From positions 32,001 to 96,000 of the IMG/VR virus record IMGVR_UViG_3300022562_001652: a stretch of DNA of 64,000 nucleotides. One strand, written 5' to 3'. Positions 4,057 to 55,198 of this stretch are shown here, in pieces. The DNA comes from a virus. The notes below the pieces were generated by a model, which made no database searches, was not told the DNA's origin, and saw only the letters and a list, made by a program, of their open reading frames with translations. The position numbers and the translations under genes are program-made. Within the stretch, counting starts at the first letter, position 1, and every line of letters begins with the position of its first letter.

Positions 4057-4655
4057 GGTCCTGAAGGAGGAAGGGTACAATGCGTCTGCGCAATGCGCAG
4101 GATCTCGTCCCAGTCAGATGACCGACGGAAGCCTGTCCAAAAGATGCTCCCCACCACGTTGTAGGGTGTCGCCCAGAGCACAGGCGTGGTGCCTTTGAAT
4201 CGCCAATACTCTCCCCAGGCCGCTACGTGCTTCTCTTTGTCGTCTACGAACACGTCTCCGTGGATGAAGTACTTCTGCGCCGTGAAGATGATCTCGTCGT
4301 CCGCGAAGCCCATGCGCTTGCGGAGCCACGTATGTCTCTCGTAGTGCCAGTACGGGCTCGAGTGCCACGGAGTCGTGACACAGAAGACGTCGGCCACCTC
4401 GCGCAGAGCCTGTACACCATCTTTGGCTCCTGGTAGTACAGCAAGAGAGGCACAAAACCCTTGCGAGGTGACAAGGCTATTAACTTCTCTCTTTTCATTA
4501 GGGGTCAGCTCGCAGAACTCGTGAAGCTCGTACATGTTTATGTTTTCATGGTCATACGATCTGCCGGTCGCAATCTGTACTGCTTCGATGTAACTTTTTC
4601 CGAAGTCGGCGAAGACACCGTCGCAGTCTAAGAGAACACGCGCTCTTCTCTTCAT
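4053..4655 (-). CDS. 5'(3')-deoxyribonucleotidase (HAD, NT5C-like)
   Basis: LLDCDGV motif I, PGAKDG, TTP, K...GDVFVDD. Confidence 0.85.
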   Translation of the reverse strand: MKRRARVLLDCDGVFADFGKSYIEAVQIATGRSYDHENINMYELHEFCELTPNEKREVNSLVTSQGFCASLAVLPGAKDGVQALREVADVFCVTTPWHSSPYWHYERHTWLRKRMGFADDEIIFTAQKYFIHGDVFVDDKEKHVAAWGEYWRFKGTTPVLWATPYNVVGSIFWTGFRRSSDWDEILRIAQTHCTLPPSGP

Positions 4656-5302
4656 CTCTTCTTTCTCCTTCCACGACACCTAGAACACGTCAGGTAACCC
4701 TTGGTTCTCTTCCTACCACAAGCGCAAAAGCCCGCCTTTCGACGAGCCGTCCTTCTCTCTCGTGCTTTCTGATTCTCCTCGAGAACACAACCTCTGCATA
4801 CTCGTGTAAGACTACCCCACCCACAAATCACGCAGATTCCACTCCGTGCCTCTTCGTCTCGACGACGTCTCTTGCGCTCACGCTGTCGAGCAGCCATGGC
4901 TCCCTTCGTGTGCTCCTCGCATCGGTTTCCTTCGTGAGCAGGACGAGAGCACCAAAGAAGGTCACAGAGGCCCATGCTTCGACGTTCCTCAATACTGTGC
5001 AGAAAATTATTCCTGACTTCCTTGTTTCGCCGTTCGAGAGCCCTCTTACGAGAATCGTGGTTCTTCTTCTCCCTGTGCCTTTCACAGAGAACCTTGCCTC
5101 CGGTAGAAGCACCACACTGCAAGCACAGCCCTTGCCTTCTACGCTCTCTTCGAAGCTGTCGGTGTTTCTCGTTGTTCTCTTCCAAATGTCTTGCACAGAA
5201 CTGACGCCCTTTGAGAGGCTCTGTGCAGCTGATTACTCGACAAAGACCTGCTCGGCGTTTTTCGTACTCACGTTCTTTCAGCTTCTTGAGCTGACGCTTC
5301 AT
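4652..5302 (-). CDS. basic Cys-rich protein with repeated GxCxxC...CxxH/C modules
   Basis: About five GLC/GIC/GFC-initiated modules separated by Arg-rich segments. Confidence 0.7.
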   Translation of the reverse strand: MKRQLKKLKEREYEKRRAGLCRVISCTEPLKGRQFCARHLEENNEKHRQLRRERRRQGLCLQCGASTGGKVLCERHREKKNHDSRKRALERRNKEVRNNFLHSIEERRSMGLCDLLWCSRPAHEGNRCEEHTKGAMAARQRERKRRRRDEEARSGICVICGWGSLTRVCRGCVLEENQKARERRTARRKAGFCACGRKRTKGYLTCSRCRGRRKKR

Positions 5303-5618
5303 CGTCCTTGGCCTCTTCGTACTCCACGATGACGCAAAGCCTCTTCAAACGCTTACCTACGAGAGGACGAAAGGCCTCCTGTAAGGTACTACAGCAGAGA
5401 CGCCTCCTGATAGACGGATCGGGAGGAGCGACCAGGTGTTCGCTGTCGGAAGAACACTCGTCGATCACAATTCGTTGCTCAGGACCCGCCAAGCGCACTA
5501 CTGACGGCCGGCCGACATAGCGCTGAAACTGGTATTCGTAGTGACTGCTGATAGGAACCCCGTTTTCACAGAACGGACATTTGAAATCATCAACGCGTAC
5601 AGGGACGCCGCTACTCAT
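5268..5618 (-). CDS. hypothetical protein (CPFC)
   Basis: ATG 5618 after AGAAGGAA; overlaps both neighbours. Confidence 0.55.
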   Translation of the reverse strand: MSSGVPVRVDDFKCPFCENGVPISSHYEYQFQRYVGRPSVVRLAGPEQRIVIDECSSDSEHLVAPPDPSIRRRLCCSTLQEAFRPLVGKRLKRLCVIVEYEEAKDDEASAQEAERT

Positions 5619-5826
5619 CACAGATTCCTTCTTTCTTGGCAAACCACATCGGCACTTCGATCTCCTCCCGTTCGTCCCCCTCTTCCAGATCATCCGGATC
5701 AGGGTCTGTGATGATGCTCTTGGGGATCCACCGCTCTTCGCCTTCGTAAAGCACGAGAACTGCCTTCTCAGTGACCTTGATCACGTCTACGTCCTCGAGC
5801 CTGTAGAGCTCGTCATAGTCACGCAC
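5611..5826 (-). CDS. small acidic phage protein (TEKAVL...WIPKS...PMWFA type)
   Basis: GGAGGAG upstream of GTG 5826; motif pattern typical of small phage proteins. Confidence 0.7.
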   Translation of the reverse strand: MRDYDELYRLEDVDVIKVTEKAVLVLYEGEERWIPKSIITDPDPDDLEEGDEREEIEVPMWFAKKEGICDE

Positions 5827-6400
5827 CGTCTGTCTCCTCCGCCTGTTCGTTTTCTGTCTGAGCTTCCTCTCCGAAGAACTTCTTTTCCAGGTAGCGAGCG
5901 ACAAGATCCAGGACTGAAGCTGCGTACTTGAGATCCTTGTCAGGATCCCCTGTCATACCCTCTGGGGGAAAGCGCGTCCCTCGAAGCTTCGAGGTAAAGG
6001 CCTTCAGTGGAATACCATACTGCAGACCGATGGAGAGCACGATCGCCACAGCATCCAGAGCGCCGCGCGCCAAGCCTCCGGTCTGTCCAACGCGGAGAAA
6101 GACCTCGCCAAGCCTCCCGTCTTCATATGTGTTGGGAGTGATGTACACGTCGACCGGACCGTCTGCAGAACGGATGGTGAAGTGCCTGGTAAAACCATTC
6201 CTCTCGTCAGGCAGACGTTCTCGGAATCTTTTCTTCTTGACGGATCTTTCTACCTCAAGAATAGCGGCTGTCTCTATCAAATCGACTACATCGAATATTT
6301 CTTTGAGAAGAGGCCTGCTCTTCTTGCATTCCGCATCCACCTTGTGGAGGTAGGTCCTGAGTAGAACGAACAAGTCCAAGTCGCTAACCTTGTCGTTCAT
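5819..6400 (-). CDS. stand-alone class II ribonucleotide reductase C-terminal (NrdJ-C/TSCPD-like) domain protein
   Basis: RERLPDER.GFT, YITPNTYEDGRLGEVF, SIGLQYGIPL, TRFPPEG, ASVLD; start at ATG 6400 coupled to the helicase stop. Confidence 0.8.
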   Translation of the reverse strand: MNDKVSDLDLFVLLRTYLHKVDAECKKSRPLLKEIFDVVDLIETAAILEVERSVKKKRFRERLPDERNGFTRHFTIRSADGPVDVYITPNTYEDGRLGEVFLRVGQTGGLARGALDAVAIVLSIGLQYGIPLKAFTSKLRGTRFPPEGMTGDPDKDLKYAASVLDLVARYLEKKFFGEEAQTENEQAEETDGA

Positions 6401-7737
6401 ACGCCACGATCCACAACTCGGGCTCGAGACCAGTCCATCGCCACCGGCAGCTCGAAGCCAGCGGGACCTCCCCGGTTCTTGTCCAGATAGATTCTCCCGA
6501 TCATGGCCTTCTTCTCCTTGTCGTCTTGGTTGAGGACGAGCATCAAATCGCAGACATGCGCTTTCTTGATCGAATCGGACACGTTCTTCCCTGTCGCCGT
6601 TCCCCGCCCGATCCCCTCCCTGTTGAGCTGCGAAGCCGTCCACCCTGCCAGATTGCGCTCTCCAAGCAGAGCACGCGTCTCGACATAGACGCTGCCCTGA
6701 TCTTCGTAAGCGTCGTTCTTCTTCACTTCCGCAGAGGGAACCATGAGCTCGCACGTGTCGATCACCAAGAGATCTGGATAGAAGCCTATCTGCCCTTCCA
6801 GACGCAGCAGGTGAGATCGGAGAGCACTGACAGTGAGCGACATGGGAGGAAAGTACTTCACGACGAGGAACTCCCCCAACTTCGTTCCCAGATCGTTCAC
6901 GTTCTCCCGAATCACGTTCTCCTCTTCTATGATATCGGAGAGGGAGACGTCGGCGAACCCGGCGTCGAAGCGTTCGCACACCATGTCTTCGTCGAGCTCC
7001 ATGGTGACGTAGAGCACCTTCGCGCCGCTCTCCAGGATAGCAGCACGACTAAACGAGATCAGTGTGCTCGACTTTCCCGAACCATAAGCCCCAAGGACGC
7101 AGCCCAACGCCTTTCTCCAAATCCCTCCAGCACGGGTGTATTCATCCACGCGTGTGCCTGTAGAGATTCCCTTTTCCACGGCTTCCTTCCTCCTCTCTAT
7201 CCGGCTCTCTAGATCACGCACATACAACTGCCCCACCCCCCCGGCACGTGCAGCGTTCACGTTCAGGATCCGACTCACTTCACGATCCACAGATTCGAAG
7301 TCCTGGATCTTGAGATGGTCGACGCTCTTGATGATAGCGTCGCGAATCACCTGGTTCTTGACGAACTCGAAGATCGCGTCCTTCACGAAGGAACGATCCT
7401 TCACCGTCTTCTTCAAACGAAGTATGGCCGCCTCCGCCTCTCCTTCGTTTTCTTTGTGCAAGAGGCGGCCGATCTGCATGTCCTTCCTGAGACGCATGCG
7501 AATCGCGTCCAGACTCGCCCCCGTCCCGTACCTCCGAGCATGAGAAAGCAAGACGTTAGCAAGCCACCTCCGCACTCTGCCATCGAACAGCCGATGATCC
7601 AGGTACTCGGCTATCGCACAACAGAAATTCGGATCTTGGTACAAGGTCCGAAGCACGCGTCCTTGAAAAGCGGTATCGAACTCAACGCTCTTCGGCTTTT
7701 CGCCACCCTCTGCCACTTTTCTACCCGCCGCAAGCAA
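6397..7737 (-). CDS. dnaB: replicative DnaB/T4 gp41-like helicase
   Basis: Walker A GAYGSGKS, LYVTMEL, LLVID, WTASQLNR, KNRGG. Confidence 0.9.
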   Translation of the reverse strand: MLAAGRKVAEGGEKPKSVEFDTAFQGRVLRTLYQDPNFCCAIAEYLDHRLFDGRVRRWLANVLLSHARRYGTGASLDAIRMRLRKDMQIGRLLHKENEGEAEAAILRLKKTVKDRSFVKDAIFEFVKNQVIRDAIIKSVDHLKIQDFESVDREVSRILNVNAARAGGVGQLYVRDLESRIERRKEAVEKGISTGTRVDEYTRAGGIWRKALGCVLGAYGSGKSSTLISFSRAAILESGAKVLYVTMELDEDMVCERFDAGFADVSLSDIIEEENVIRENVNDLGTKLGEFLVVKYFPPMSLTVSALRSHLLRLEGQIGFYPDLLVIDTCELMVPSAEVKKNDAYEDQGSVYVETRALLGERNLAGWTASQLNREGIGRGTATGKNVSDSIKKAHVCDLMLVLNQDDKEKKAMIGRIYLDKNRGGPAGFELPVAMDWSRARVVDRGV

Positions 7738-41838: not shown

Positions 41839-43269
41839 TCAATCGTCGTTCACGTTATCGAAGATCACGTACTTCTGAGGAGCACGAGCGATCGGAGCGA
41901 TGTACATGCCCTGCGCCCAACGCATCGACAGCGCCTGCGTCCCGAACGGGATCTTGAACATCGGCGCGAGCTGAATGAGGCCAACACACTCCTCGTTCAT
42001 CTGGAACATGAACGCGCGCGACTTCCCAGGAAGGAACCTGTTGACGTCGTACGCCGTAGTCGTAGCCGCACCAGGAACGCGAGGCACGCTCATGATGAGC
42101 TTCTCGGTCCCGGCCGCTCCTCCTACCGCACTACGGTAGATGTCGTAACACGTTGCCGTGTCACCACCACCACCATCCGTAATGACGAGGTTCACGCGAT
42201 CGCCAGAGGCCGTCACAGCGACACCACCAGCCTCCTGCACGCCAGCCGAGGAACCGAAGCGGTTTCGCGCGGCGACCTTGTACTGATACGTGCCGATGTC
42301 CGACGTCGCGAACAGTGTTCCCTGTGCCGCAGTGATACTGCCCACGACCGACACGATCGACGACGGAGCCCGAACAGCCGTAGCAGAAGCAGGGGCGAAC
42401 TGCGATCCTCTGTCTTTCCCAGGCCGCAGAAAGATCGACTTCTTCAGGTTCACTTCGTTCGACTGCAGCTGGACGGCACGAAGAGCCATGCCGATCACGC
42501 CGGCTTGTGGTGCAGGCAGAACGATCCGCTCCTTGGTGTGCTGCTGCTTCCCGAGATCCGAGAGAGCGCGCATCGACAGGTACAGATCAGTGGCTTCTCC
42601 GTATGCCTCTTCGATGATGTTAGCCCCCTCCTCGAGCTTGTCGTAGGAGAGGGGGCCGCCACGAAGATCGAGGATGTTCGAAGCCCCGAACACCGAATCC
42701 TCACGCAGCAGTCGATCGTACCCGTCGTACTCCTCCGGCACGCAGTCCGAGCGACCGTTGTACATGGCCTTCTCCGCCATCTTCATCAGCCACAGAGCTC
42801 CGTTGGCCGTGTACATGGCGATGACGTCACCGTGCGCCGAACGCACGAGAGAAGTCGGGTGGTCGACTTCTCGCTGCGTTGCCAGGTACTTGACAGGGAC
42901 GAACTTGCGAACGAAAGACGACTCCTGCACCTGCGGCGCTTCACCCGCACGAACGAAGGCTCCGTTCTCGACGCCGTACGAGGTCTGCTGATTAAACTCG
43001 TGGACCGTTGAGTACGTCGGTGCCTTGGGAACGTCATGAAAGAGCACGATGTGACGAGCTCGATACGTGAGGACGCGGAGCGTCGCCTCGAGCGACTCCA
43101 CACGCAACGCGCCGGAACCCGAAACACGCGGACTCTGGTAGTTGGCCGCAAGAGCCTTCTTGAACTCCTCGATCGGCATCTTCTCGAGAGGACCCTGCCG
43201 ACCAGCAAAGCCTCCGTAGAACCCGCCTCCAAGACCTTCGTAGTCACGAAGAGAGATATCGCCGTACAT
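41839..43269 (-). CDS. major capsid protein (SPO1/Twort-like, with Ig/FN3-like insertion)
   Basis: FKKAL propeptide site, GALRVESLEATL, STVHEF, ILDLRG, YQYKVAARNRFG. Confidence 0.9.
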   Translation of the reverse strand: MYGDISLRDYEGLGGGFYGGFAGRQGPLEKMPIEEFKKALAANYQSPRVSGSGALRVESLEATLRVLTYRARHIVLFHDVPKAPTYSTVHEFNQQTSYGVENGAFVRAGEAPQVQESSFVRKFVPVKYLATQREVDHPTSLVRSAHGDVIAMYTANGALWLMKMAEKAMYNGRSDCVPEEYDGYDRLLREDSVFGASNILDLRGGPLSYDKLEEGANIIEEAYGEATDLYLSMRALSDLGKQQHTKERIVLPAPQAGVIGMALRAVQLQSNEVNLKKSIFLRPGKDRGSQFAPASATAVRAPSSIVSVVGSITAAQGTLFATSDIGTYQYKVAARNRFGSSAGVQEAGGVAVTASGDRVNLVITDGGGGDTATCYDIYRSAVGGAAGTEKLIMSVPRVPGAATTTAYDVNRFLPGKSRAFMFQMNEECVGLIQLAPMFKIPFGTQALSMRWAQGMYIAPIARAPQKYVIFDNVNDD

Positions 43270-43284: not shown

Positions 43285-44184
43285 CTACTCCGCCGAACGA
43301 AGGTCCCGGACGATCTCCGAAACCAGATTGCTGGGCAGCGCCCGGGGGTTGTACCGATTGGCCTCGAAGATCATCACCACGTCTTCAAGTGACTTCCTCA
43401 GCTTGCCCTCTGGCGTGGTATCCACCTTCTGGTAGAGCCAGCCCTTGATGAGGTCGGAAGGAACCTCGTCGAGAGGGTGTCCGGTGAACAGGAGACTGTT
43501 CTGCTCCGTCTCCTCGTGAGGATCGACGATGTCGCCTTTCTCCAAGACCATGGGACGATTGCCATAGTCGACGGGACTGTTGAGTGCCTTCTGGACTCCG
43601 TTCCCTATCTTGGATAGGCGATCTTTGATAGTCGCGAGGCTACGAGCGATCGAAGCCATCTCCTCAGAGAGGACTACGAAACCCTTCGCGAGCTTCTTGT
43701 TGAACTCGGACTGCTCAGCGCGCACCGCAGTTCCGTGGCTGACAAGAGCTTTCGCCAGACCATTGAACTCCGCTTCGAAGTGTTCGCTGATAAGCGTGAC
43801 GAAGGAATCGAGGAAGTCGCTTGCGTTGAACGCCTTGCGCATCTCGCCGTCGCGCTCCGCACGCTCGCGAAGTGACTTCCGGGTGTCGCTGTCGTCGTCG
43901 TCGTCATCGTCGTCATCATCTGAACCATCGTCCGACGACGTGTTGTCTGAGTCGTCGTCTTCATCAGACGCCGACATCATCTTGGCCACGTGCTCGCCAG
44001 AGCGGCCCGCCTTACCTGAAAGAGGAGTCCCCACCTTGGGAAGACCTCCTTCGGGATCTTGTGCAAGGACAGGATCACTCTTCTCGACGACAGCATCTTG
44101 AAGCTCGTCGAGCGCCTTGAGAAGACTCTCTTCCGAGACGATCTCCTCTTCTGCCTTCTTGATCTGCTTGGTCTTCGTCGCCAT
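43285..44184 (-). CDS. scaffold-like acidic coiled-coil protein
   Basis: Directly upstream of the MCP; poly-D tract; many [LIVM]xK[AS] sites. Confidence 0.7.
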   Translation of the reverse strand: MATKTKQIKKAEEEIVSEESLLKALDELQDAVVEKSDPVLAQDPEGGLPKVGTPLSGKAGRSGEHVAKMMSASDEDDDSDNTSSDDGSDDDDDDDDDDSDTRKSLRERAERDGEMRKAFNASDFLDSFVTLISEHFEAEFNGLAKALVSHGTAVRAEQSEFNKKLAKGFVVLSEEMASIARSLATIKDRLSKIGNGVQKALNSPVDYGNRPMVLEKGDIVDPHEETEQNSLLFTGHPLDEVPSDLIKGWLYQKVDTTPEGKLRKSLEDVVMIFEANRYNPRALPSNLVSEIVRDLRSAE

Positions 44185-44890: not shown

Positions 44891-45652
44891 TCATCCTCCT
44901 CGGGCACGATGTACGACGAAGCGGGCTGCCCTCTGCGTGGCCTTCTCCGTCAAGTGGGGCCACCTGTGCTTCACCAAGCGCATCGCGTGCTGAAACGCAG
45001 GACCGCTGGTCAACAAGGTCGGCGATGATTCGAGCTCTTCAGGGCGAAGAACACCTGGACCACCCGCAGCCGGGCTGGTCGTAGTAACTGACAAGGCCTT
45101 ATCGGCGGCGTCGCTCACAGCAGATGGATCAGCGAAGGCCTTGGTAAGAACAGACCAAGAGCAACTCGTGTTCACAGGCATGCGTGTGATGGCGACATCG
45201 CGGACTTTGGCACGGAGGATCTTGTTGTACCCGTCTCTCTCGACCACCTTCCCTTCGATCGAGAAACCGAGTTTGCGAGGAGCTTGCATGCGTGCGAGGC
45301 TCTTGGCAAGCTCCCAGATCCGATCAGAAGGCGGATACCCAGGAATCAGATTCCCCTCCACCCACCAACGTCCTTTTTCCAACCGTGCGTCCGTCGGGTA
45401 TCCGAGAGCAGCGGACGTCTCTTGCCGATGGTTATCGTTGAACCACCCCCAAGAAACGAACTCAGAGAAATCCAACCCCTTTTGGACGACGATCTCCCCC
45501 TGTCGATCGAGATCTTCCGTCGAGGCAAAACCACCGATTGATCGACTCACTTCTACGTCGTCACCCGCCTTCTCCAGGATCTGGAAAACCCCGGGCACAA
45601 AGACGTTGAAGACGTCTTTGTCGGCTTGTTCAGAAGTTGTCTCTTCCAGCAT
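44891..45652 (-). CDS. prohead (maturation) protease, HK97/herpes-like fold
   Basis: GFASTEDLDRQGE, NDNH, LGFSIEG, VAITRMPVN; ATG 45652 after GAGGA. Confidence 0.9.
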   Translation of the reverse strand: MLEETTSEQADKDVFNVFVPGVFQILEKAGDDVEVSRSIGGFASTEDLDRQGEIVVQKGLDFSEFVSWGWFNDNHRQETSAALGYPTDARLEKGRWWVEGNLIPGYPPSDRIWELAKSLARMQAPRKLGFSIEGKVVERDGYNKILRAKVRDVAITRMPVNTSCSWSVLTKAFADPSAVSDAADKALSVTTTSPAAGGPGVLRPEELESSPTLLTSGPAFQHAMRLVKHRWPHLTEKATQRAARFVVHRARGG

Positions 45653-45690: not shown

Positions 45691-46560
45691 CTACGAATTC
45701 AGAATCTGCAAAGGTGGGAAAGGAGAACCACTTCCCACAGCCTCTCTGAACATGGTTTCGTACGCCGGAAAGGAGGAGACACCCATCGTCCTTTGCGACA
45801 CCTTTGCCCAAGGCATCTTGTACGGGAACGTCTCCAAGAAAGCCTTCCTCACACAAGCATGTTCTACTTCAACAGGACTCACTAGTCCCGACAACGCATC
45901 GCGTATCTGATCCTCCGTCACGCTCATAAAGGAGTCCCACAAGGGATCCAAATGAATGCGCTCGTGGAAAAGGTACTTGTGGAAGATTTGGTGATAGAAA
46001 CGCAACGTTTGTCCAAAAGAAACAGCGTTGTCCCACGCCACCAGACCATGCGACACGGTCCCGCCATCCAGCAGAACTCGCACGCCGACGTTGTTAGCGT
46101 GCCTGTCTCGAGCCCCTGCTACGAAGTCAAGAATCACAAGCTTCGTCCACTGTGTCTTTGGAACCAAAGAACAGACGGCTATGAGATCACTAACCCAGTT
46201 CGGGTTTCGTCGTGAACGAAGCGACTTGCGAAACGATGATAGAGGAGCAGCAGAGATCCATGCCTGTGCAGACGCTTCTGCGCCATCGAGCTCGAAGAGA
46301 ACTGTTTCAGGAACGATGTCTTGGTACCCGTACAGGCTAGCAAGCTGCCAAAAAGCGACCTCTCGGCGAGGATGTGACAAGGCAGTTATTCCACGCTGCG
46401 CTACCTTGCCGCTAGGCAGCTTTTCCTTCGAAAACTTCACCAATGCCCGGGTTCCGTCCTGCCACCGTGCTTCGAAGGTTTCGCTTTTACCAACCTTGAT
46501 AGGGGTCATCTCCCTGGGAGGAGATGATGTCACTCTCTTTTGGAAATCAGAAGGACCCAC
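45691..46560 (-). CDS. PI3/PI4-kinase / HipA-like atypical kinase
   Basis: ALVK, REVAFWQL, IVPETV, catalytic loop LDFVAGARDRHANN, AWDNAVSF. Confidence 0.8.
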   Translation of the reverse strand: MGPSDFQKRVTSSPPREMTPIKVGKSETFEARWQDGTRALVKFSKEKLPSGKVAQRGITALSHPRREVAFWQLASLYGYQDIVPETVLFELDGAEASAQAWISAAPLSSFRKSLRSRRNPNWVSDLIAVCSLVPKTQWTKLVILDFVAGARDRHANNVGVRVLLDGGTVSHGLVAWDNAVSFGQTLRFYHQIFHKYLFHERIHLDPLWDSFMSVTEDQIRDALSGLVSPVEVEHACVRKAFLETFPYKMPWAKVSQRTMGVSSFPAYETMFREAVGSGSPFPPLQILNS

Positions 46561-46563
46561 CGC

Positions 46564-47325
46564 CTATGACCCCTTCTCCGATACGTGCACGACACGAAGC
46601 TCACAGCGACACCCTACATGGACAGAGCCAACTACAGGCAACCACTCTGTGGCATTCTCCCCTTTAAACGTAGGACGGCCAGCTCTACGACCAACATTGC
46701 TGCCGTTCGACATAAGCTGGTCAATACGAAAGACACGAGGTCTGCTCCCGTCAACCGTGTAGAGAAGTCGACAATAGGAGCAGCAGTCTGGGTGTGTTTT
46801 CTTCCAGACCAGCGTGGTAGTCCCACTCTTCTTGATGATGGACGAAGCCCTGCCCTCCTCCATCGCATCGTGGATCGTGGTCCCTATGTCACGACGCCAC
46901 TCACGAGAGGCGACAGATAGCGCCTTCTCAATCTGACCTTTGGCTATAGCCAAAGCGGCTCGTCGTGCTTTGCTGAGGTCTCTGGCAGAGAGCTTCCTCT
47001 TACGCAGAAGAGAAGAACCTTCTCGTAGAGCCAGGCGTACTTTCGACAAGAGACGATCACGAACAGACTGGGCTATGTCGGTAAGCTGATCTCGCAAAGC
47101 ATCAGCGGCTGCTCGATCGATAGGGACCTTGCCTTTTTCGATCATAGACCTGACGTACCACACCGTCGGCATGCTGCTGCTTCTAGATCCAGCACCAGAC
47201 AGAAACCCGAGAGCCACGCTTACCTCTGGTAAGTCGCTACCTGTAACTCCCTTGATGAGTTTGGCATGTGCGTCTCGCACACGACGCACCAAGGCTGCTT
47301 CTTGACTTTTGGACAACAGCCTCAC
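46564..47325 (-). CDS. MuF/SPP1 gp7-like minor head protein
   Basis: CCSYCRLLY...NGSNVGR...W.PVVGSVHVGCRC C-terminal signature. Confidence 0.75.
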   Translation of the reverse strand: MRLLSKSQEAALVRRVRDAHAKLIKGVTGSDLPEVSVALGFLSGAGSRSSSMPTVWYVRSMIEKGKVPIDRAAADALRDQLTDIAQSVRDRLLSKVRLALREGSSLLRKRKLSARDLSKARRAALAIAKGQIEKALSVASREWRRDIGTTIHDAMEEGRASSIIKKSGTTTLVWKKTHPDCCSYCRLLYTVDGSRPRVFRIDQLMSNGSNVGRRAGRPTFKGENATEWLPVVGSVHVGCRCELRVVHVSEKGS

Positions 47326-48764
47326 GCAGCGTCCTCCTCACCGGTCGTCACAGTAGGTGAAGTCGGAAACATCCTCTTAGCCCCCTCGATCACCGTAACG
47401 AAATCTGACGACTTCGTAGAAGCCACGAAGACTTCACGAACAACAGGATCCCCCTCGTTGGCTCTATTGAGCGCTTCAGCAAGGAACGACAGCAGCTCGT
47501 CAAGACGCTCTCTCAGTACTTCGAGCGTTCCGTCCTCGGGAGAAGTCATGACGCGCAAGCGAAGGGCCGAAAGACAGGTTTCTCCCAGCTTGGTATCGGG
47601 GACCACTCCAGTAGACAGCTCGTACGAAAGCTTTTCAGGATGCCAAGCAACCATGAGTGCGGCAGCACAGTACAACAGAACTACGACGTGCAACGGCGGC
47701 TGCCGGAGCTCATCCAGGCTGATCTCAGCTAGAGAGCCGATACTTTCTTCGTCTTCAGAAAGAAGTTTCTCGTTTGGAGAGATGCTTTCTTCGTCCCCCG
47801 CCACAAGCAGCCCTAGCCTAGATAGAGCTACGATAGCTGCTAGCACGTCATCGCACCAATCGGTAGTGCCAGACATCCGACTCCCTACGCTCGCTAAGAA
47901 AAGCGTGTCGGGATGAGAGGCCCCTTTGAGCCATGCGTCAGGAGAGGCGGCGTCTCCTTTCTTCAAAGAAGGAACACTTGATTCCTTCTCTCCGAGTAGG
48001 AAAGCCTGTCGACGATTTTTTGACGCAACCACAATCGAAGAAAAGGTTGTCGGAAGACGTTCTGCACGAACGAGCGGATGTGGGGCTTCTTTCGAAACGT
48101 ACGAAAGCGTCACGTGTGGGATATACCCATGCTTCCTAGACATGAGGCTTCCCAGCGATCCGAGCTGAGACAAGAGTCTGTTACGAAAATCAGGAAGCTC
48201 AGGTGAGTCTACGAGAGCGACGATCACGTCTTTTCCGTCACTGCTGTCGCTAGCAGCAAAACGACCCACACCCCCAACTTCCCCAGAAAAAGGGGCCTGT
48301 TTCGCAGCAAATCCCGACACGACAGAACAGAGACTGTCCCACGTATCACCGTCTGACGTTTCCGGGAAATAAGCGAGCGTCACGTGCATGTCTTCAGGAG
48401 AGACCGACCCGAGAGGAGCCAACTGCTTTCCTGTAGTCTGGGGTACTTCAAGAGCGATCATGATCCCAGAATGTTTGTTCTCGTTTGTCGTCGATTTGAC
48501 GAGATCTTCTAGATCTCCAACAAAGATCCCGTCGGCCTTCTCCAACGGCTTCTTGGAAAGCACATCATCTAGTACAAAGCGCACGTCTCGTAGACACGCC
48601 TCGTACGTCGAGGAGAGTTCATCCTCCAAAGATGCAGCTGCTCCCGAAGACTTTGATCGGACGAGAAGCTGCGCCTTGAGAACGAAGTCGTCATCGAGCT
48701 GGGCTCCGTCGCCAAGTACGGCGTCGAAGACGGAGCCCAGCTCTTGTGAACGAACCCGTCGCAC
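47322..48764 (-). CDS. multidomain head-module protein with a central 2H phosphoesterase (Acb1/T4 57B-like)
   Basis: SGIMIAL, two HxT motifs MHVTLAY and YIPHVTLSY. Confidence 0.8.
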   Translation of the reverse strand: MRRVRSQELGSVFDAVLGDGAQLDDDFVLKAQLLVRSKSSGAAASLEDELSSTYEACLRDVRFVLDDVLSKKPLEKADGIFVGDLEDLVKSTTNENKHSGIMIALEVPQTTGKQLAPLGSVSPEDMHVTLAYFPETSDGDTWDSLCSVVSGFAAKQAPFSGEVGGVGRFAASDSSDGKDVIVALVDSPELPDFRNRLLSQLGSLGSLMSRKHGYIPHVTLSYVSKEAPHPLVRAERLPTTFSSIVVASKNRRQAFLLGEKESSVPSLKKGDAASPDAWLKGASHPDTLFLASVGSRMSGTTDWCDDVLAAIVALSRLGLLVAGDEESISPNEKLLSEDEESIGSLAEISLDELRQPPLHVVVLLYCAAALMVAWHPEKLSYELSTGVVPDTKLGETCLSALRLRVMTSPEDGTLEVLRERLDELLSFLAEALNRANEGDPVVREVFVASTKSSDFVTVIEGAKRMFPTSPTVTTGEEDAA

Positions 48765-48773
48765 GGGCAGCTC

Positions 48774-51700
48774 CTACCGCTGTCGGAACAGCTTGTCAAT
48801 CGGTGGCACCGGCCTGAGAGCAGTGCCGTTGTCACCCTTGGAAATCAGATCTGCCGTGTACCGATCGAGACCTGAATCCACCCAGGTGAAGAAAGGACTT
48901 CCCGCAACGACCTCGGGGGCCATGATGCCCTTCATCAAGGCCACCTCGTCGACAGCCACCCCTTCCCCTACGGAAGCGTCGTCGTCGGCGTCGGTGTCGG
49001 CATCAGCATCAGCGTCAGCCTTCTTGATCTTCACAGACGAGTCCGCCTTCTTGAGATCAGGCTTTTCACGAAGAGCCTTTCCTACGATCTGGCTCTTCGT
49101 GATGGGTTCGTCACAGTGGGGACAGTCGATGATAGCCTTCTCCTCTGCCATCTCGTTCCCGATCTCACTCTTGAAAAGGTCGTGCATCTTTCCCATTTCG
49201 TTCTCCTCCAGCGGCTTCACGCTCTTTCCAACCTTACGAGACATGCCTGTCTGTCTAGACAGGTTTTCATGAGCATGTGCCAGCGCCTCGTGTACACCAG
49301 CACCAATGTGGTTGTTGTTGGCGCGCTCTCCATCAGCATGTTTTTGGTGTGTATAGCCCCACATCTGGTGGTCGGCAGATGTGTTGGGACCAGGGACTTG
49401 GGAACTAGTGTACGAGTAAGCCATGTGCGTCGCAGCTCGTTGTACTTCCTCGTGCGCCTTTGCTGCTTGGGCACTTTTCACGCCGTGCTTTAGCTGCGCC
49501 ATACGGTGGTTGACGACAGCATGATGAAGCTTGAGTTCTGAGATCTCCGCTCCAACGTGATCAGAGCCTTCATACTGTCCAGAAGAAACGAAGCGCGATG
49601 CCTTTTTCACGACAGGACCTTCTCCTTTCTCTGGAGCAGGTACGGCGGGCATTTCTTGAGTCTTGCGAGAGTGTGTTCGCAAAAGGTTGATCTTCGCCTT
49701 CTCATGCGCCACCGACAGAGCACGGTGTACCTTGCTCGTCACACCCCTGCCCGAGGTTTTTGCATCAGCAGCCAATCCACCATGTATATGTTCCCACGTC
49801 TCATGGGTAGCTCGGTTAGGATTCGTAGTGTAGTGGCGCGCGATGTGGTCAGCTGCACGTTCCACGGCGGCATGCGTTTTTTGCGTATAGGGATGCTCGT
49901 CGCCGTGCTCCAGCCGAGCAATGTGGTGCTGCACCACAGCATGGTGCAACTTGAGCTCAGCGAGAGCAGCCCCTTTAGCGTCGCTACCCGTATACTGCTG
50001 AGGGGGTTTTTTTTCTTCTTCCTCCCCTTTCTTGATCTTCCGCGTCGACGCGCCAGTAGAGACCGCCGATACCGAAGATGCAGCCGGAACTTTGGCGGCC
50101 ATAAGATGGTTGCCCCCTAGCTTGCTAAGCTCCTCTCGATGGGCCCAAGAAAGAGCCTCGTGCGCTTGAGCAGTGTGTGCATCGCCCGCCGACCGAGCAG
50201 CGCCAGCTCGACCAAGATGCTCCACATGAAGAGCCCTGTGCACACCTAGCATGTGAGAGGCGTAGGCCCGCGAATCATCGTGAAATGTCGAGGACCCCTT
50301 CGGCGATTTTGGTTCGAACCGTCCTTGTACAGAAGCCACGTGTGAAACATGCAGCTTGGCCGCGTTGTGTAATGCTTGAAACGCCCGTTGCGTCAGCGGA
50401 TGGTCCGGGCCGTTCTTCACCGACGACATGTGGTGGAGCAGCGCTGCCTGGTGGACCCGTAGATACGAAAGCTCGGCCTTCTTTCCTCCAGATCCATCTG
50501 CCTTCGACAGCTGGTCGAGAAACGAGGAAGCTGCCTTATTCGTAGACAACCCCGCATGAGCAGCCTCTTGGTGGACTTTGGAGAAAGTGCGGTGTATTAG
50601 GAGAGTACGCTCTCCATAAGGAAAAGCCACTCCGCTACCGGAAGATAGTCTCTTCTTGTTGCTCTCGTAGGCATGGGCCAGCCGATCGTGGTGCGCTGCC
50701 AAAGAAAGATGTGCCTCCGGAGACAGGCCAGAGAAGTGTTCCCCTACGTGCCTGCGCACGCGGCGTGATAGGGTCTTCTCAGAAGCTTTGCCTTCAAGCA
50801 CACGCTTGGCATTTGCGTGCATCTCCGACGTAGGCAAGCTCGCGTCTACGGGAGACCACTTCTTCTTCTTCGGAGAAGAGCCTGTTGGAAGATGCGGCTC
50901 CGTCATGTATCGCGTGCCGCCCACGTTTATGATCGTCTTGGCGAGCTCCTCGAACGTGCTCGAGGCATCCATCGCAGCGACGCTCTTCTCGACCAGAGAA
51001 GGGAAAGAAGCATCGCGATCAAGGTCGATGAAGATCCCTACGAAGGATTTCACCTTCGAGTGAGGAGCGTTCTTCCGACGCTCGCTTCGATCGTATTGTT
51101 CGATGCGTTTCACTGTTCCCGCCTCGTCGTTGTTGACGGAGACGAGATGCGCCCTACGTCGAGCCTCGTAGTCGATCTGGTGTCTGTTCGAGGACGAAAC
51201 CTTGCTTTTCGTCTTCTTGCCCTTCTTGGGAGGAGGCGCCTTCTTCTTTTGCTTCTTGTCTTTACCTAGCCACTTGCCCTTGGTCTTCTTCCCCGTCTTA
51301 AAACGTCCGTAGGGAACGTTTCCGTGTACACGCCCTGAGCGTGCCTTCTCCTGCGAGACGTAACGAGGCTTCCCCTGCGTGTCGAAATGCTCGACCTGTC
51401 CTCCTCGACTTCCGACCCCTTCGCCGGCCTTCTCTACGTCGACGTAGATGCCGACGCTTTTCCCGACCCCTTTTGCTCCAATCTGACGAGCCCGTTGAAT
51501 ATGTGCCGAGGCTAGAGACTCATGGACCTGGGCAAGGGCTGAATGTGTCGGATGGAGAGGGCTCCCGTCGTTAATTTTGGCATACTTCGGGCTCTGGTTA
51601 CTGCGCGCCTCTTTCTCGTGATGCTCCTGCCACGCACGATGCCAACGAGCTTGCGCTTCGTGCTGTCCGGAAGACATGCCCCCAGAGGCTTCCTCCGTAG

Positions 51701-52787
51701 CCTTCACATGAGCACGTACCGCCCCTCTCCACTGAGACGTTCTGTCGCCAACGTTTTGGTGAGCGAGCCTCATCAGATGGGCACCCGTCTCTCCGGTCGG
51801 GTGCATAGCCTGTCCTGGTGGAGCGTTGCCAGGAAGTGGGGCCTTGACGTACTTCGCTTTGGCTAGATCGAACACCAGCCCCGCCTTCTCCACCTTCTTC
51901 AGCTTCTGATAGTAGTGTGGATCTTCCACCAAGTGATCCATCGCGATCTCACGAGCAAGCTTGAGATCCTTCGTGTGTTCCATCTCGTGCTTCGCTCCCT
52001 CATGAAGTTGATCCTGGTCGAAGTCCTCAGGCTTCTTGTCGTCAGCCTTGCCTCCAGGAATTTGGTCCGCTTTCCCGATACCAGGATATTTTCGACGAAC
52101 TGAAGAGCGAACCCGTGTCTTCTCTTCAGGGCTCCCAAACTGAGACACACGAGCCAAAGCGTTCCGAGCATGGGAAGCATCGTGGATGGGGTATCTGCGA
52201 CCAGGCAACGCGAAGTCTTTGCTTTTGATCTTCTTCCGAGCTCGCGTCGTCAGCTTGGCTTTTTCAAGGTCAATGACCGCTTCTTCAGACTTCCCGACCT
52301 TGCGATCATACTTCAAGGCAAAGTCCTCCGTATCCGTGCTGCCTGAAAGCTTTCGACGTGTTGGGTACAGCATCTCACGGTGTGCGTCACGCATAGCTGC
52401 GTGTGCTATACGTTTGTGAAACTCGTCATCGGTAATTTCTTTACCAGCACGGTTTCGCAAATCAATGCGAAACTTAGCGGCAGCATGCGCGTTGTAAGCG
52501 CGCTCATGATCGTCAGAAGACATGTGCGTAAGACGTGAAACATGGTTCCGTGCCTCTGCTCTTGCCAGACGGTAGTTAGATCGCGACAAGGCAGACATAA
52601 CTGCGTATGGGATATCGGCAGCCTTCCCAAGATCAGCTACAAAGTCTTCGGACTTCCCACCCCGAAGCTTGTTGACAGTCGCCCAGCCAATCCTCTCAGC
52701 TTCCTCCTTCGAGGCGCCACGACGACGCTCAGAAGCGGTGATGTGCTTCACCTGTCGCTTCTCCTTGGCGCTATGGGAGCCTGGCAT
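48774..52787 (-). CDS. 1337-aa modular His/Lys/Ala-rich head-module protein (ChaB-like, DUF6582-like, DUF5661-like and His-rich repeat modules)
   Basis: AERIGWATVNK; DFALPGRRYPIHDASHARNALAR; GAKHEMEHT...IAMDHLVEDPHYY; recurrent D[LV]xK[AS] linkers. Confidence 0.8.
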   Translation of the reverse strand: MPGSHSAKEKRQVKHITASERRRGASKEEAERIGWATVNKLRGGKSEDFVADLGKAADIPYAVMSALSRSNYRLARAEARNHVSRLTHMSSDDHERAYNAHAAAKFRIDLRNRAGKEITDDEFHKRIAHAAMRDAHREMLYPTRRKLSGSTDTEDFALKYDRKVGKSEEAVIDLEKAKLTTRARKKIKSKDFALPGRRYPIHDASHARNALARVSQFGSPEEKTRVRSSVRRKYPGIGKADQIPGGKADDKKPEDFDQDQLHEGAKHEMEHTKDLKLAREIAMDHLVEDPHYYQKLKKVEKAGLVFDLAKAKYVKAPLPGNAPPGQAMHPTGETGAHLMRLAHQNVGDRTSQWRGAVRAHVKATEEASGGMSSGQHEAQARWHRAWQEHHEKEARSNQSPKYAKINDGSPLHPTHSALAQVHESLASAHIQRARQIGAKGVGKSVGIYVDVEKAGEGVGSRGGQVEHFDTQGKPRYVSQEKARSGRVHGNVPYGRFKTGKKTKGKWLGKDKKQKKKAPPPKKGKKTKSKVSSSNRHQIDYEARRRAHLVSVNNDEAGTVKRIEQYDRSERRKNAPHSKVKSFVGIFIDLDRDASFPSLVEKSVAAMDASSTFEELAKTIINVGGTRYMTEPHLPTGSSPKKKKWSPVDASLPTSEMHANAKRVLEGKASEKTLSRRVRRHVGEHFSGLSPEAHLSLAAHHDRLAHAYESNKKRLSSGSGVAFPYGERTLLIHRTFSKVHQEAAHAGLSTNKAASSFLDQLSKADGSGGKKAELSYLRVHQAALLHHMSSVKNGPDHPLTQRAFQALHNAAKLHVSHVASVQGRFEPKSPKGSSTFHDDSRAYASHMLGVHRALHVEHLGRAGAARSAGDAHTAQAHEALSWAHREELSKLGGNHLMAAKVPAASSVSAVSTGASTRKIKKGEEEEKKPPQQYTGSDAKGAALAELKLHHAVVQHHIARLEHGDEHPYTQKTHAAVERAADHIARHYTTNPNRATHETWEHIHGGLAADAKTSGRGVTSKVHRALSVAHEKAKINLLRTHSRKTQEMPAVPAPEKGEGPVVKKASRFVSSGQYEGSDHVGAEISELKLHHAVVNHRMAQLKHGVKSAQAAKAHEEVQRAATHMAYSYTSSQVPGPNTSADHQMWGYTHQKHADGERANNNHIGAGVHEALAHAHENLSRQTGMSRKVGKSVKPLEENEMGKMHDLFKSEIGNEMAEEKAIIDCPHCDEPITKSQIVGKALREKPDLKKADSSVKIKKADADADADTDADDDASVGEGVAVDEVALMKGIMAPEVVAGSPFFTWVDSGLDRYTADLISKGDNGTALRPVPPIDKLFRQR

Positions 52788-52817: not shown

Positions 52818-53225
52818 CTACTTACGGCCCACAGATGCGTCGAAGACGCGTCCCCAGTAACCAGACTCTATCTTGTGCTTCTTCGCGAACTCCTTCAGGT
52901 GACTGCCCATGAAGCCAACGAAGCCCTTCTTCCCTCCAGGAGCCTTGCCCTGGTGAAAAGAGCCAGCGATCTTGTGGATCGTGTCTGGGTGAAAGCCTAG
53001 GCGAGCAGCTAACTTATCGATCGAGACAGGGAGGGTACTGGCCTCAGGCACCTGCTCCTGCCCAACACTGTTAGAAGGAACACCCCCATTCCCCTTCTTG
53101 TCAGCAGGGTACGTGTACTTGGTGCGTCCTCCTGCACCAACCTTCTTCTTGGAAACAGCACGAACCGGGGTCTTCTTGACCTTCTCGGTTCGCTCCTTCT
53201 TCGGCAACGCCTTCTCCACAATCAT
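52818..53225 (-). CDS. basic head-module protein (MIVEKA...; TKYTY)
   Basis: 135 aa, ATGA coupled. Confidence 0.7.
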   Translation of the reverse strand: MIVEKALPKKERTEKVKKTPVRAVSKKKVGAGGRTKYTYPADKKGNGGVPSNSVGQEQVPEASTLPVSIDKLAARLGFHPDTIHKIAGSFHQGKAPGGKKGFVGFMGSHLKEFAKKHKIESGYWGRVFDASVGRK

Positions 53226-53467: not shown

Positions 53468-55198
53468 CTACTCCATATCTATGATCAGGTACTCGTCTTC
53501 GTCTCGCTTCTGCTTCTCTCCTTTGCGGAGATCGTTATCACGAGACACGGAAGCGTGTACGGAGCTGACCCAGTCGTCGCGCAGGAAGCCCTCGTCCACG
53601 GGCACTGGCGCAATCTTCTTCTCGCCGATGCGAGACGCAGCATCGAGAAGACGCTGCGCTCCTTGGTGCTCTTCATGACCGTGGTCTTCTCCCTCAAACA
53701 TGCGGTCTTCCTCATGCTGGGGTTGAGCGGCGGCCTGAGACGCGTCTCCTCCGGCCGCCTGTTGCTGCTGAGCCATCTGCGCCTTGAACTGAAGAGCGGC
53801 GATGTACGCAGGGTTCATGATGATGTCGCCACCCTCCTTCAGAGGCCCTAGATCCTCGAGCTCGCGGACCTCATTTACCGTGAGGTAGGTCTGTCCCTGT
53901 TTCGCACGAAGCTCGACCGCTTGTTCCTCGGTCTTGGCATCCAGCCCGACGAATTCAAACTCGAACTGATCATCGATCGGCCAGACGACGTGGTTATTCA
54001 GAGACTCCGCGTAGAAATGAAGTAGTGGACGAAGCCCTCTGTCCTTCGATGCCTTCTGCTGTGCTTCGTTCGTCGACATGAAGAGGGGCTGCTGCGCCAC
54101 GCTGCCACGAAGATCGTGGTTGATCTCGGCAGGATCTACCAGGAACACAGCGCAGGCACACTTCACCAAGAACTCCACCCAGAGCTGATACTCCATCTCC
54201 TTGTTGGTGGCCTGAAACGGGACCCATTGGATCTCGTCAGAGTTGACGATCGGCGTCTTCCACGCCTGCCCGACGCCTACGAGCTGCTGGTACCAGCTCT
54301 TGCGGAGCTCCTCCAGCTTCCTCTCGTTCAGCTTCCCCTTAATATTCAGGATCCCCTTCGCCGTAGTTCCCTGACTGAAGCCTTTGGCGTTGTAAGTCAG
54401 AGCCCACAGAAGCCAGGTGATCGTCTGAACTAGGATCTCTACTTCCGACAGACCGTAGCCGAAGGATCGGATGTCCGTGCTGGGGTTGCGCACCAAGAAG
54501 GCCAGCTCATCGGACGTATACTCGCGGACTTTACGCGCATCGATCACCTGCGCATACTCGATCCGGTTTTTGAGTTCCGCCGTAGACGGGGGTGTTCCTC
54601 GACGATTCTTGGGATGCGCGATCCTGACGGTGCCGGCGTCAACCGCGTGGATCGAATGCAAGCTCCCTCCGCGAGTCCACACCTTCTCGAAACACCCTCG
54701 ATCCAAGGTCAAGGAGTCGGGCACGACCTTGCGAAGTAAGTTCGTCAGAGAACCCCTCTTCAGGTTGTACTCAACTCCTGTATTGACCAAGAAGTGAGTC
54801 AAGTAGTCGACGCGATCCCGCTCCGAGTCGCTGAGCCTCCGAGCCGGATTGCCCCAACGTGGTTTGAATCTGAACCCGACGCTGTACTTGTTCGGCTGGG
54901 GCTGGCAGAAAGAGGTGATCTGGTTCTTCCGAAGAAGAATGATCGAAGAGATGATGTCGACGTGCTTCGCAGCGTTTCGCAGATCGTTATCGGAGAGACG
55001 AGAAGGGATATTCCTGTATCCCATCCCGAACGAGTCGGCCATCATGTCGGGATCGACGAAGTAGGACTTGGGCTCCTCTTCTTTAGGAGGACCGTCGTCG
55101 TCCTTGACTCCCGCCTGAGCAAGTTTCTCGGCAAACGTTCCGAAAGCCTCTATAGCAGCTTTCGTGACTTGTTCCGGAATGAACTCCACTAGGCTCAT
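53468..55198 (-). CDS. portal protein
   Basis: DSLTLDRGCFE, AVDAGTV, RNPSTDI..FGYGLSEVE, TVNEVR...LGPL..GDII. Confidence 0.92.
   Translation of the reverse strand: MSLVEFIPEQVTKAAIEAFGTFAEKLAQAGVKDDDGPPKEEEPKSYFVDPDMMADSFGMGYRNIPSRLSDNDLRNAAKHVDIISSIILLRKNQITSFCQPQPNKYSVGFRFKPRWGNPARRLSDSERDRVDYLTHFLVNTGVEYNLKRGSLTNLLRKVVPDSLTLDRGCFEKVWTRGGSLHSIHAVDAGTVRIAHPKNRRGTPPSTAELKNRIEYAQVIDARKVREYTSDELAFLVRNPSTDIRSFGYGLSEVEILVQTITWLLWALTYNAKGFSQGTTAKGILNIKGKLNERKLEELRKSWYQQLVGVGQAWKTPIVNSDEIQWVPFQATNKEMEYQLWVEFLVKCACAVFLVDPAEINHDLRGSVAQQPLFMSTNEAQQKASKDRGLRPLLHFYAESLNNHVVWPIDDQFEFEFVGLDAKTEEQAVELRAKQGQTYLTVNEVRELEDLGPLKEGGDIIMNPAYIAALQFKAQMAQQQQAAGGDASQAAAQPQHEEDRMFEGEDHGHEEHQGAQRLLDAASRIGEKKIAPVPVDEGFLRDDWVSSVHASVSRDNDLRKGEKQKRDEDEYLIIDME

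Follow-up and report, generated by a model that had tools for sequence, protein, structure and literature searches.

A large head-module protein of an uncultured SPO1-like phage with repeated linker peptides that resemble the capsid maturation site

Within a 64,000-nucleotide stretch of viral DNA (positions 32,001 to 96,000 of IMGVR_UViG_3300022562_001652, a single-contig virus record of 113,815 bp; hereafter the window), the minus-strand open reading frame (ORF) 48774..52787 is a real gene of 1337 amino acids (aa), here called P0001, that lies between the portal and prohead-protease genes. The first 770 residues of its product contain six copies of an acidic and hydrophobic peptide of 9-21 aa, each with Lys-Ser/Ala at both ends, and comparison with the major capsid proteins (MCPs) of related phages indicates that four of these linkers carry the sequence recognized at the MCP maturation cleavage. 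On this basis we lean towards the view that P0001 is cut by the prohead protease at the linker sites inside the procapsid, yielding many small basic internal head proteins; that these products are then kept in the capsid and injected is a more tentative proposal.

The linkers share a common form, opening with [KG]-x-K↓[SA] (the arrow marks a predicted cut, here and below), continuing through two to four residues and closing with hydrophobic-hydrophobic-x-D-hydrophobic-x-K↓A, with linker 5 being a longer variant. They are listed below with the gene itself, together with their scores in bits against a matrix of MCP maturation sites described further on and the segments of low predicted local distance difference test (pLDDT) score in AlphaFold2 (AF2) models.

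48774..52787 (-): P0001, polyprotein-like head-module gene of 1337 aa, defined by its ORF and by N-terminal conservation in relative L003
52620..52664 (-): linker 1, aa 42-56; GK↓S, a 10-mer and D-L-x-K↓A; 14.6 bits at K55; low-pLDDT segment aa 38-67
52257..52301 (-): linker 2, aa 163-177; 10.9 bits at K176
51855..51896 (-): linker 3, aa 298-311; 10.9 bits at K310; low-pLDDT segment aa 285-335
51426..51470 (-): linker 4, aa 440-454; strict motif match; low-pLDDT segment aa 435-468
50982..51059 (-): linker 5, aa 577-602; KVK↓S, hydrophobic-I-D-L-D and LVEK↓S; low-pLDDT segment aa 573-599
50499..50546 (-): linker 6, aa 748-763; 13.7 bits at K762; modelled as a weak helix by AF2

Motif counts in P0001 were compared with those in 5000 composition-preserving shuffles of its sequence and in the rest of the proteome (35.7 thousand aa (kaa) with P0001 included). 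The double-site pattern occurs six times in P0001 and nowhere else in the proteome (shuffle mean 0.05, 0/5000), [VI]GK[AS] five times against 0.17 expected (0/5000 shuffles; none in the rest of the proteome) and [LIVFM]xK[AS] 17 times against 5.0 expected (0/5000 shuffles; 79 in the rest). A strict eight-residue motif, [LIVFMAY]2-x-D-[LIVFM]-x-K-[ASG], has six matches in the entire proteome, four of them in P0001 and two elsewhere. The bare K[AS] dipeptide, found 34 times against 26.2 expected (238/5000 shuffles; 243 in the rest of the proteome), was rejected as a signal, being mostly a product of the Lys/Ala/Ser composition; the signal is the extended peptide. A first-pass annotation of this DNA, made from the letters alone, had described recurring double-site linkers between unrelated modules. 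The strings that it quoted are all present, and enrichment holds for the extended and double-site motifs, not for the bare dipeptide; of its list of sites, the six linkers stand, while the later IKKG, VKKA and LFKS are each weak on their own. Linker codons vary at synonymous positions, which argues that the linkers have been kept as peptides and are not recent DNA repeats.

The match to the capsid protein involves the following genes and sites of the head module.

41839..43269 (-): MCP; phrog_752, 5.5e-79
43150..43176 (-): predicted MCP maturation site K38↓A39, within a D-V-x-[DE]-L-x-K-A-L motif
44891..45652 (-): prohead protease, the presumed enzyme; phrog_1028, 5.7e-52
43285..44184 (-): scaffold-like acidic protein of 299 aa, from its ORF
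53468..55198 (-): portal; Pfam Phage_portal, 1e-21

A D-V-x-[DE]-L-x-K-A-L block is common to the MCP N-termini of 23 relatives, with K38↓A39 as the aligned position here, and SPO1 Gp6.1 carries the same block. Cps of Listeria phage A511 is reportedly cut between Lys and Ser. In Staphylococcus phage ISP/phi812 the aligned residues are K24↓S25, and since the 439-aa chain of PDB 9row is the 463-aa ISP/phi812 precursor without its first 24 residues, and so begins at residue 25, the aligned lysine marks a real maturation cut in that lineage. A score matrix was built from 21 distinct MCP sites of relatives, with the phage of the window left out; coming from other genomes and from another protein, it is independent of the motif proposed in the first-pass annotation. 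Its top matches are K55, K762, K176 and K310 of P0001 (10.9-14.6 bits), and at a threshold of >=10 bits there are four matches in P0001 and two in the other 34,031 aa, with a shuffle mean of 0.12 and none of 5000 shuffles reaching four.

Sites of this type are also concentrated in head proteins generally. Hydrophobic-x-K[AS] occurs 12.7 times per 1000 aa in P0001, 8.35 times in twelve other head-module proteins and 1.74 times in the rest of the proteome, and the P3 residue is hydrophobic in 65% of head K[AS] dipeptides versus 27% of the rest (Fisher p 4e-6). In 43 related loci, retrieved from viral contigs with an alignment of two proteases and having MCP identities of 33-50%, hydrophobic-x-K[AS] reaches 7.9 per 1000 aa on the upstream side of the MCP gene versus 2.1 downstream, the P3 preference again differs between the two sides (p 1.6e-4), and a stringent matrix gives 13 matches upstream and 0 downstream. 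The predicted enrichment of the motif in head over non-head proteins was thus found both in this proteome and among relatives. The individual strings proposed as shared sites in the MCP, protease, portal and 135-aa proteins, along with that at the portal C-terminus, are likewise all present, and the scaffold proteins of SPO1 and ISP are dense in x-K-S.

In the protease itself, which is of the SPO1/Twort type (S78/U35-like), His75 and Ser131 are invariant in a pairwise alignment with the L001 orthologue, and the C-terminal region combines conserved K↓[AS] sites with a mimic of the MCP N-arm; the proteases of the relatives all keep three K↓[AS] sites in this region. This layout suggests self-processing together with an MCP-like docking element. 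A post-catalytic hydrophobic-L-x-K↓[SA] site is conserved across the family proteases (that of the window; L003-L041; L045:4020-4793; L046:7416-8186), including those of ISP and SPO1, and is followed in order by a segment that mimics the N-arm of the mature MCP, then a run of Lys residues and finally a third K↓S site. At the portal, the C-terminus in the window (53468-53530 (-)) and those of relatives L001, L005, L006, L009, L010, L012, L013, L024, L027, L035 and L043 form a hydrophobic-x-hydrophobic-[YV]-E-[IV]-[DE]-hydrophobic strand, preceded in several cases by D-L-R-K-[SG], that resembles the core of the P0001 linkers.

The P0001 product (146.9 kDa, isoelectric point (pI) 9.7) has a high content of Ala, Lys, Ser, Gly, Arg and His. 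Its first 45 aa form a conserved module and its last ~135 aa a conserved acidic domain; between them lie some ten small modules (5-17 kDa), which are basic for the most part (pI 9-11.7), helical and in many cases rich in His.

52653..52787 (-): module A, aa 1-45; basic, pI 11; 67% identical to the start of the L003 orthologue (390 aa)
52290..52622 (-): module B, aa 56-166; helical orphan, pI 9.8
52071..52259 (-): module C, aa 177-239; phrog_16160 or weak DUF6582 unit, pI 11.7
51885..52070 (-): module D, aa 240-301; DUF5661, between K239↓A and K301↓A; Pfam 7e-10
51459..51857 (-): module E, aa 311-443; helical orphan, rich in His
51048..51428 (-): module F, aa 454-580; GSRGG...GKPxY knuckle, then a tract rich in Lys; pI 10.7
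50535..50984 (-): module G, aa 602-751; orphan
49224..50501 (-): modules H, I and J, aa 763-1188; a set of three paralogous repeats, helical and His-rich, ending in VGK1188↓S
48777..49223 (-): acidic C-terminal domain, aa 1189-1337, pI 4.5; has stand-alone homologues

Of these roughly 12 segments, two are defined by Pfam or PHROG, three are paralogous repeats and two are the conserved N- and C-terminal modules. The DUF5661 assignment made from the letters alone was borne out by a match of aa 257-301 to positions 16-64 of the 65-position PF18905 profile, above the Pfam threshold (39.5 bits vs a cutoff of 27). The neighbouring DUF6582-like unit fell short of Pfam PF20223 (14.3 vs 27.3 bits) and instead matched phrog_16160 (5e-16). 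A proposed ChaB-like module (ChaB, Pfam PF06150) was not recovered: aa 1-45 match no Pfam family at E<=5, nor does ChaB appear at E<=1 across P0001. Both the GSRGG...GKPRY motif and the His-rich units were found as described. Pfam searches found no catalytic or LPD domain in P0001, and ESM Atlas look-ups of aa 921-1188 and 1-166 returned nothing usable. Repeats I and J are 43% identical (E 8e-22) and H and I 29% (E 3e-9), with the weaker sites K920↓G and K1062↓A separating the three; the C-terminal domain starts with D-L-F-K↓S, contains CPHC...ITK↓S and ends in a conserved tail.

Where module edges can be placed by homology, they coincide with the sites. The phrog_16160 unit begins at aa 177, and A177 aligns with residue 2 of gp26, a stand-alone 67-aa protein of Tunturiibacter phage Tunturi_2 (51% identity), so a cut after K176 would leave the same N-terminus as that of the free-standing homologue. 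DUF5661 fills the interval from K239↓A240 to K301↓A302. Module pI values lie between 9 and 11.7, except for DUF5661 at 5.4, and those of the linkers at about 4-6. AF2 models, computed from single sequences without an alignment and used only for the coarse positions of gaps, place linkers 1-5 and the K920, K1062 and K1188 junctions in low-confidence or coil gaps between helical bundles.

Few relatives of P0001 were found, and those that were preserve mainly its ends. When aa 302-1337 were searched with HMMER against 1.84 billion representatives, seven proteins matched, each of them over just the last ~135 residues. Two of these are stand-alone proteins of 131-134 aa that start with M-x(3-8)-[DE]-[LI]-F-K-[SA]-E, whereas in the longer ones (230, 514 and 557 aa) other modules precede that peptide, and one of the longer homologues combines a pair of GSRGG knuckles with His-rich helices and a single linker. 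A GSRGG knuckle also follows an L-E-K-A site at the N-terminus of the 514-aa protein of L004 and occurs twice in P0037. A viral-contig scan with an alignment of the C-terminal domain returned the L003 contig again and nothing else, and one with the MCP as a single protein gave no match. No full-length homologue of P0001 was found; DUF5661, which occurs in 31 large multidomain phage proteins, is alone shared. In L003, the closest relative (MCP 50%), the orthologue is only 390 aa long, with 67% identity at aa 1-39, which supports the ATG start of P0001, and 52% at aa 1201-1242. Since this orthologue shares the termini only, P0001 looks like a ~1150-aa expansion between conserved ends, and its middle looks like an orphan expansion that includes the three paralogous His-rich repeats. 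The suggested shuffling of modules among homologues was seen for DUF5661, module C and the two terminal parts; no homologue of the remaining modules was detected among the 1.84 billion representatives. The idea of an effector locus gained support from the 43 related loci, which encode proteins of 1000-2800 aa at the position of P0001, some with SNF2+ART, InPase+Mom or LPD1 domains, including bona fide polyvalent effector proteins. Giant head-module proteins of four relatives (L012:3328-6390, L024:4278-9653, L025:5398-7578 and L037:3-6362) carry a conserved H-K-x-G-Y...D...hydrophobic-D-hydrophobic-G-K-A block, which looks, by eye and without a domain search, like the catalytic loop and DFG motif of a protein kinase.

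The mechanism that we favour, in which we infer cleavage, capsid retention, injection and module functions from these comparisons, would run as follows. P0001 would enter the assembling procapsid, with the C-terminal domain as the likely anchor, perhaps aided by the hydrophobic-acidic linker strands; the conserved domain, which is also encoded by genes of its own, is the most economical candidate for this role and no worse a one than the hydrophobic-D-L-x-K peptide. The Ser-His prohead protease (44891..45652) would then cut after Lys, both where a module ends, at (K)-V-G-K↓S, and where the next one begins, at hydrophobic-hydrophobic-x-D-L-x-K↓A, so that each pair of cuts would free an acidic spacer of ~10 residues. 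The freed basic modules would remain with the DNA and go into the host cell when the phage infects, much as is the case for T4 internal proteins and for the polyvalent effector proteins found at this position in relatives. A bolder version, which we hold to be unlikely in full, is that the product of one late gene is loaded into the procapsid and cut there by the maturation protease at repeats of the MCP cleavage site, yielding at least ten small basic proteins plus ~10-residue acidic spacers, and that the linker also acts as a portable cassette for both address and cut. If new cargo could be added by insertion in this way, the growth from ~390 aa in the nearest orthologue to 1337 aa would be explained.

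Several observations weigh against proteolytic release of injected modules. The comparison of head proteins with the rest of this proteome is not fully independent because the motif was derived from the same sequence, and the AF2 evidence on domain boundaries is weak because the models are poor (mean pLDDT 48 and 42), with linker 6 being modelled as a helix. Effector function is unsupported because most modules have no homologue among the 1.84 billion representatives. In relatives, the full linker occurs just once or twice per protein versus six times in P0001; linker matches in L012, L024, L025 and L037 were discounted as belonging to the block that by eye is like a kinase DFG motif, and site depletion inside Pfam domains of the relatives' polyvalent proteins is not significant (2.6 vs 4.2 per 1000, p 0.49). 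A cultured close relative is also absent, the top MCP identity in the phage collection being 35%.

An alternative that we regard as improbable, though deserving of weight, is that P0001 is a disposable core or auxiliary scaffold, whose sites are cut and whose pieces leave the prohead so that the conserved C-terminal (or N-terminal) part alone lasts. There is precedent in SPN3US, where N-terminal propeptides of 111-254 aa contain several protease motifs and their fragments mostly leave the head (PMC10052503), and the density of x-K-S sites in the SPO1 and ISP scaffolds, the orphan middle modules, which may be evolving fast under little constraint, and the conservation of termini only in the L003 orthologue would all fit. 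A separate scaffold gene is, however, present (43285..44184), two of the modules, DUF5661 and the phrog_16160 unit, belong to conserved domains found stand-alone or in polyvalent proteins, and basic products of 5-17 kDa would tend to remain with the DNA.

Slightly less probable still is that P0001 is a giant internal or ejection protein that is never cleaved, with the peptide serving as a docking strand for the MCP, scaffold, portal or protease and the protein being packaged whole, like the N4 virion RNA polymerase (vRNAP). Some polyvalent proteins are indeed packaged unprocessed (Iyer et al., PMC5512222), and the linker core (hydrophobic-hydrophobic-x-[DE]-hydrophobic-[DE]) resembles the hydrophobic-x-hydrophobic-Y-E-I-D-hydrophobic tail of the family portals. 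Yet each linker ends in an MCP-type K↓A and starts after a second K↓S, when pure docking would need not both, and stand-alone homologues start at or just past the sites. Finally, an artefact of composition in a Lys/Ala/Ser-rich low-complexity protein, to which only the marginal excess of bare K[AS] could lend support, is effectively refuted by extended and double-site counts that no shuffle reached and that are nearly absent from the other 34 kaa.

Set beside known systems, processing of P0001 at its linkers would parallel MCP maturation in the Herelleviridae, with an MCP of the same phrog_752 fold family (31-35% identity), a related protease and an aligned [DE]-hydrophobic-x-K↓[SA] site; the cultured Herelleviridae ISP, SPO1 and LP-124, unlike this phage, have no large polyprotein between portal and protease. 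In phiKZ-like giant phages, inner-body and ejection proteins are matured by the prohead protease. The cuts there, of A/S/G-x-E specificity, mainly remove N-terminal propeptides, whereas the sites in P0001 are Lys-based and their cleavage would separate tandem modules. In SPN3US, a single short motif marks the cuts in many head proteins, with several cuts per polypeptide (PMC10052503, PMC7411985). By the account of Mullaney and Black (1996) given in PMC10052503, T4 IPI-III and Alt are targeted to the capsid by a leader of ~10 residues that ends at a prohead-protease site. The predicted products of P0001 resemble the T4 internal proteins in being small, basic and internal to the head, and the stand-alone relatives of its C-terminal domain, as well as proteins of two relatives, start with a leader-like peptide of ~10 residues, which in their case ends in K↓A or K↓S. 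P0001 has no sequence homology to the T4 internal proteins, however, and the T4 protease cuts after Glu, whereas the proposed cut in P0001 is after Lys; T4 encodes its internal proteins as separate genes, whereas P0001 concatenates about a dozen units, with the leader-like peptide internal and repeated.

Polyvalent proteins combine two to fifteen distinct domains, from a shared repertoire that includes MuF, zincin peptidase, ART, SNF2 and LPD, in one phage or plasmid polypeptide predicted to travel with the DNA, and their release has been proposed to occur via an embedded zincin-like or a C-terminal assemblin-like peptidase (PMC5512222). Like them (Iyer et al. 2017), P0001 is large, is built of many modules (~12 segments) and lies in the head or packaging region, and it shares DUF5661, the only domain found in common with such proteins, with 31 large proteins carrying 2H, NUDIX, GNAT, topoisomerase, portal or S78 protease domains. 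It differs in that its modules are tiny (45-160 aa) and mostly orphan, with no catalytic domain detected, and in that its release is proposed to depend on a separate prohead protease acting at repeated MCP-like sites. P0001 belongs loosely to the polyvalent class, and what we propose as new relative to these systems is that the capsid protease, encoded separately, releases the modules at MCP-type sites repeated in tandem, P0001 having six linkers.

If the sites are cut, P0001 would offer a clear phage case in which the capsid protease processes a polyprotein of tandem modules. To our knowledge, the known cases of processing by capsid proteases are removals of single propeptides. Cleavage would also mean that the MCP-site peptide predicts packaged proteins across a large uncultured SPO1-like clade and that the linker is a natural design for loading foreign proteins into capsids that have a Lys-cutting protease, and the orphan basic and His-rich proteins would become candidates for DNA-associated internal proteins or early-acting injected ones. 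Even in the absence of cutting, the repeated peptide would stand as a strongly non-random motif that is shared with the MCP propeptide junction.

Every gene of the head-morphogenesis block around P0001 is on the minus strand, in the order portal, two small genes, P0001, a 480-aa 2H protein, 253-aa and 289-aa proteins, protease, two small genes, the 299-aa scaffold-like protein and MCP. The MCP is 31-35% identical to those of SPO1-like Bacillus phages, with Twort-like ones being more distant, and by these comparisons the phage is an uncultured, distant relative of phages with a Herelleviridae-type head module (SPO1-like myophage). The genes immediately downstream of P0001 are as follows.

47322-48764 (-): 480-aa protein with a 2H/LigT phosphoesterase domain (7.6e-12) and a weak Acb1 match, from a domain search
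48492..48548 (-): linker-like double site by motif match, aa 73-91 of the 480-aa protein, before its 2H domain
46564-47325 (-): 253-aa protein, from its ORF
45691-46560 (-): 289-aa protein, from its ORF

Among the labels first given to these neighbours, the 2H enzyme was found as described, while the 289-aa "kinase" and 253-aa "MuF" proteins match neither Pfam nor PHROG. The first ~95 aa of the 2H protein form a domain that ends in the double site and is homologous to the N-terminus of a 1655-aa SNF2+ART polyvalent protein of L003, and a 1469-aa SNF2 protein of L004 has, as judged by eye, the same N-terminal motifs; these proteins may share a domain that serves for delivery or as a propeptide and whose cargo can be exchanged. 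The Cys/His-rich C-terminal half of the 253-aa protein is homologous to a region within proteins of 600-2200 aa in many relatives. The 289-aa ORF overlaps a long, TTG-start form of the protease ORF and has K-V-G-K-S close to its N-terminus. On the portal side of P0001, a basic 135-aa protein (52818-53225 (-)) begins with M-I-V-E-K↓A and shares homology with the C-terminal portions of longer proteins in L003 and L004 (320 and 417 aa).

Two further observations concern other phages. In SPO1, gp5.3 (L046:5285-5701) is a small, very basic protein encoded just upstream of the portal gene, and its N-terminus is a hydrophobic-I-D-I-E-K-G peptide of ~13 residues, which is similar to the P0001 linkers and may be an unrecognized leader in this model phage. 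In L001 (IMGVR_UViG_3300037461_000409), a polyprotein of 1228 aa (2830-6516), which appears in NCBI as a hypothetical protein of a Planctomycetes metagenome-assembled genome, contains three copies of a G-[WFY]-x-P-[IV]...G-G-[YF]-[RH]-K...G-Y-[IV]-Y-W-Y-P-G unit, with a K-[SA] or K-R site ahead of each copy.

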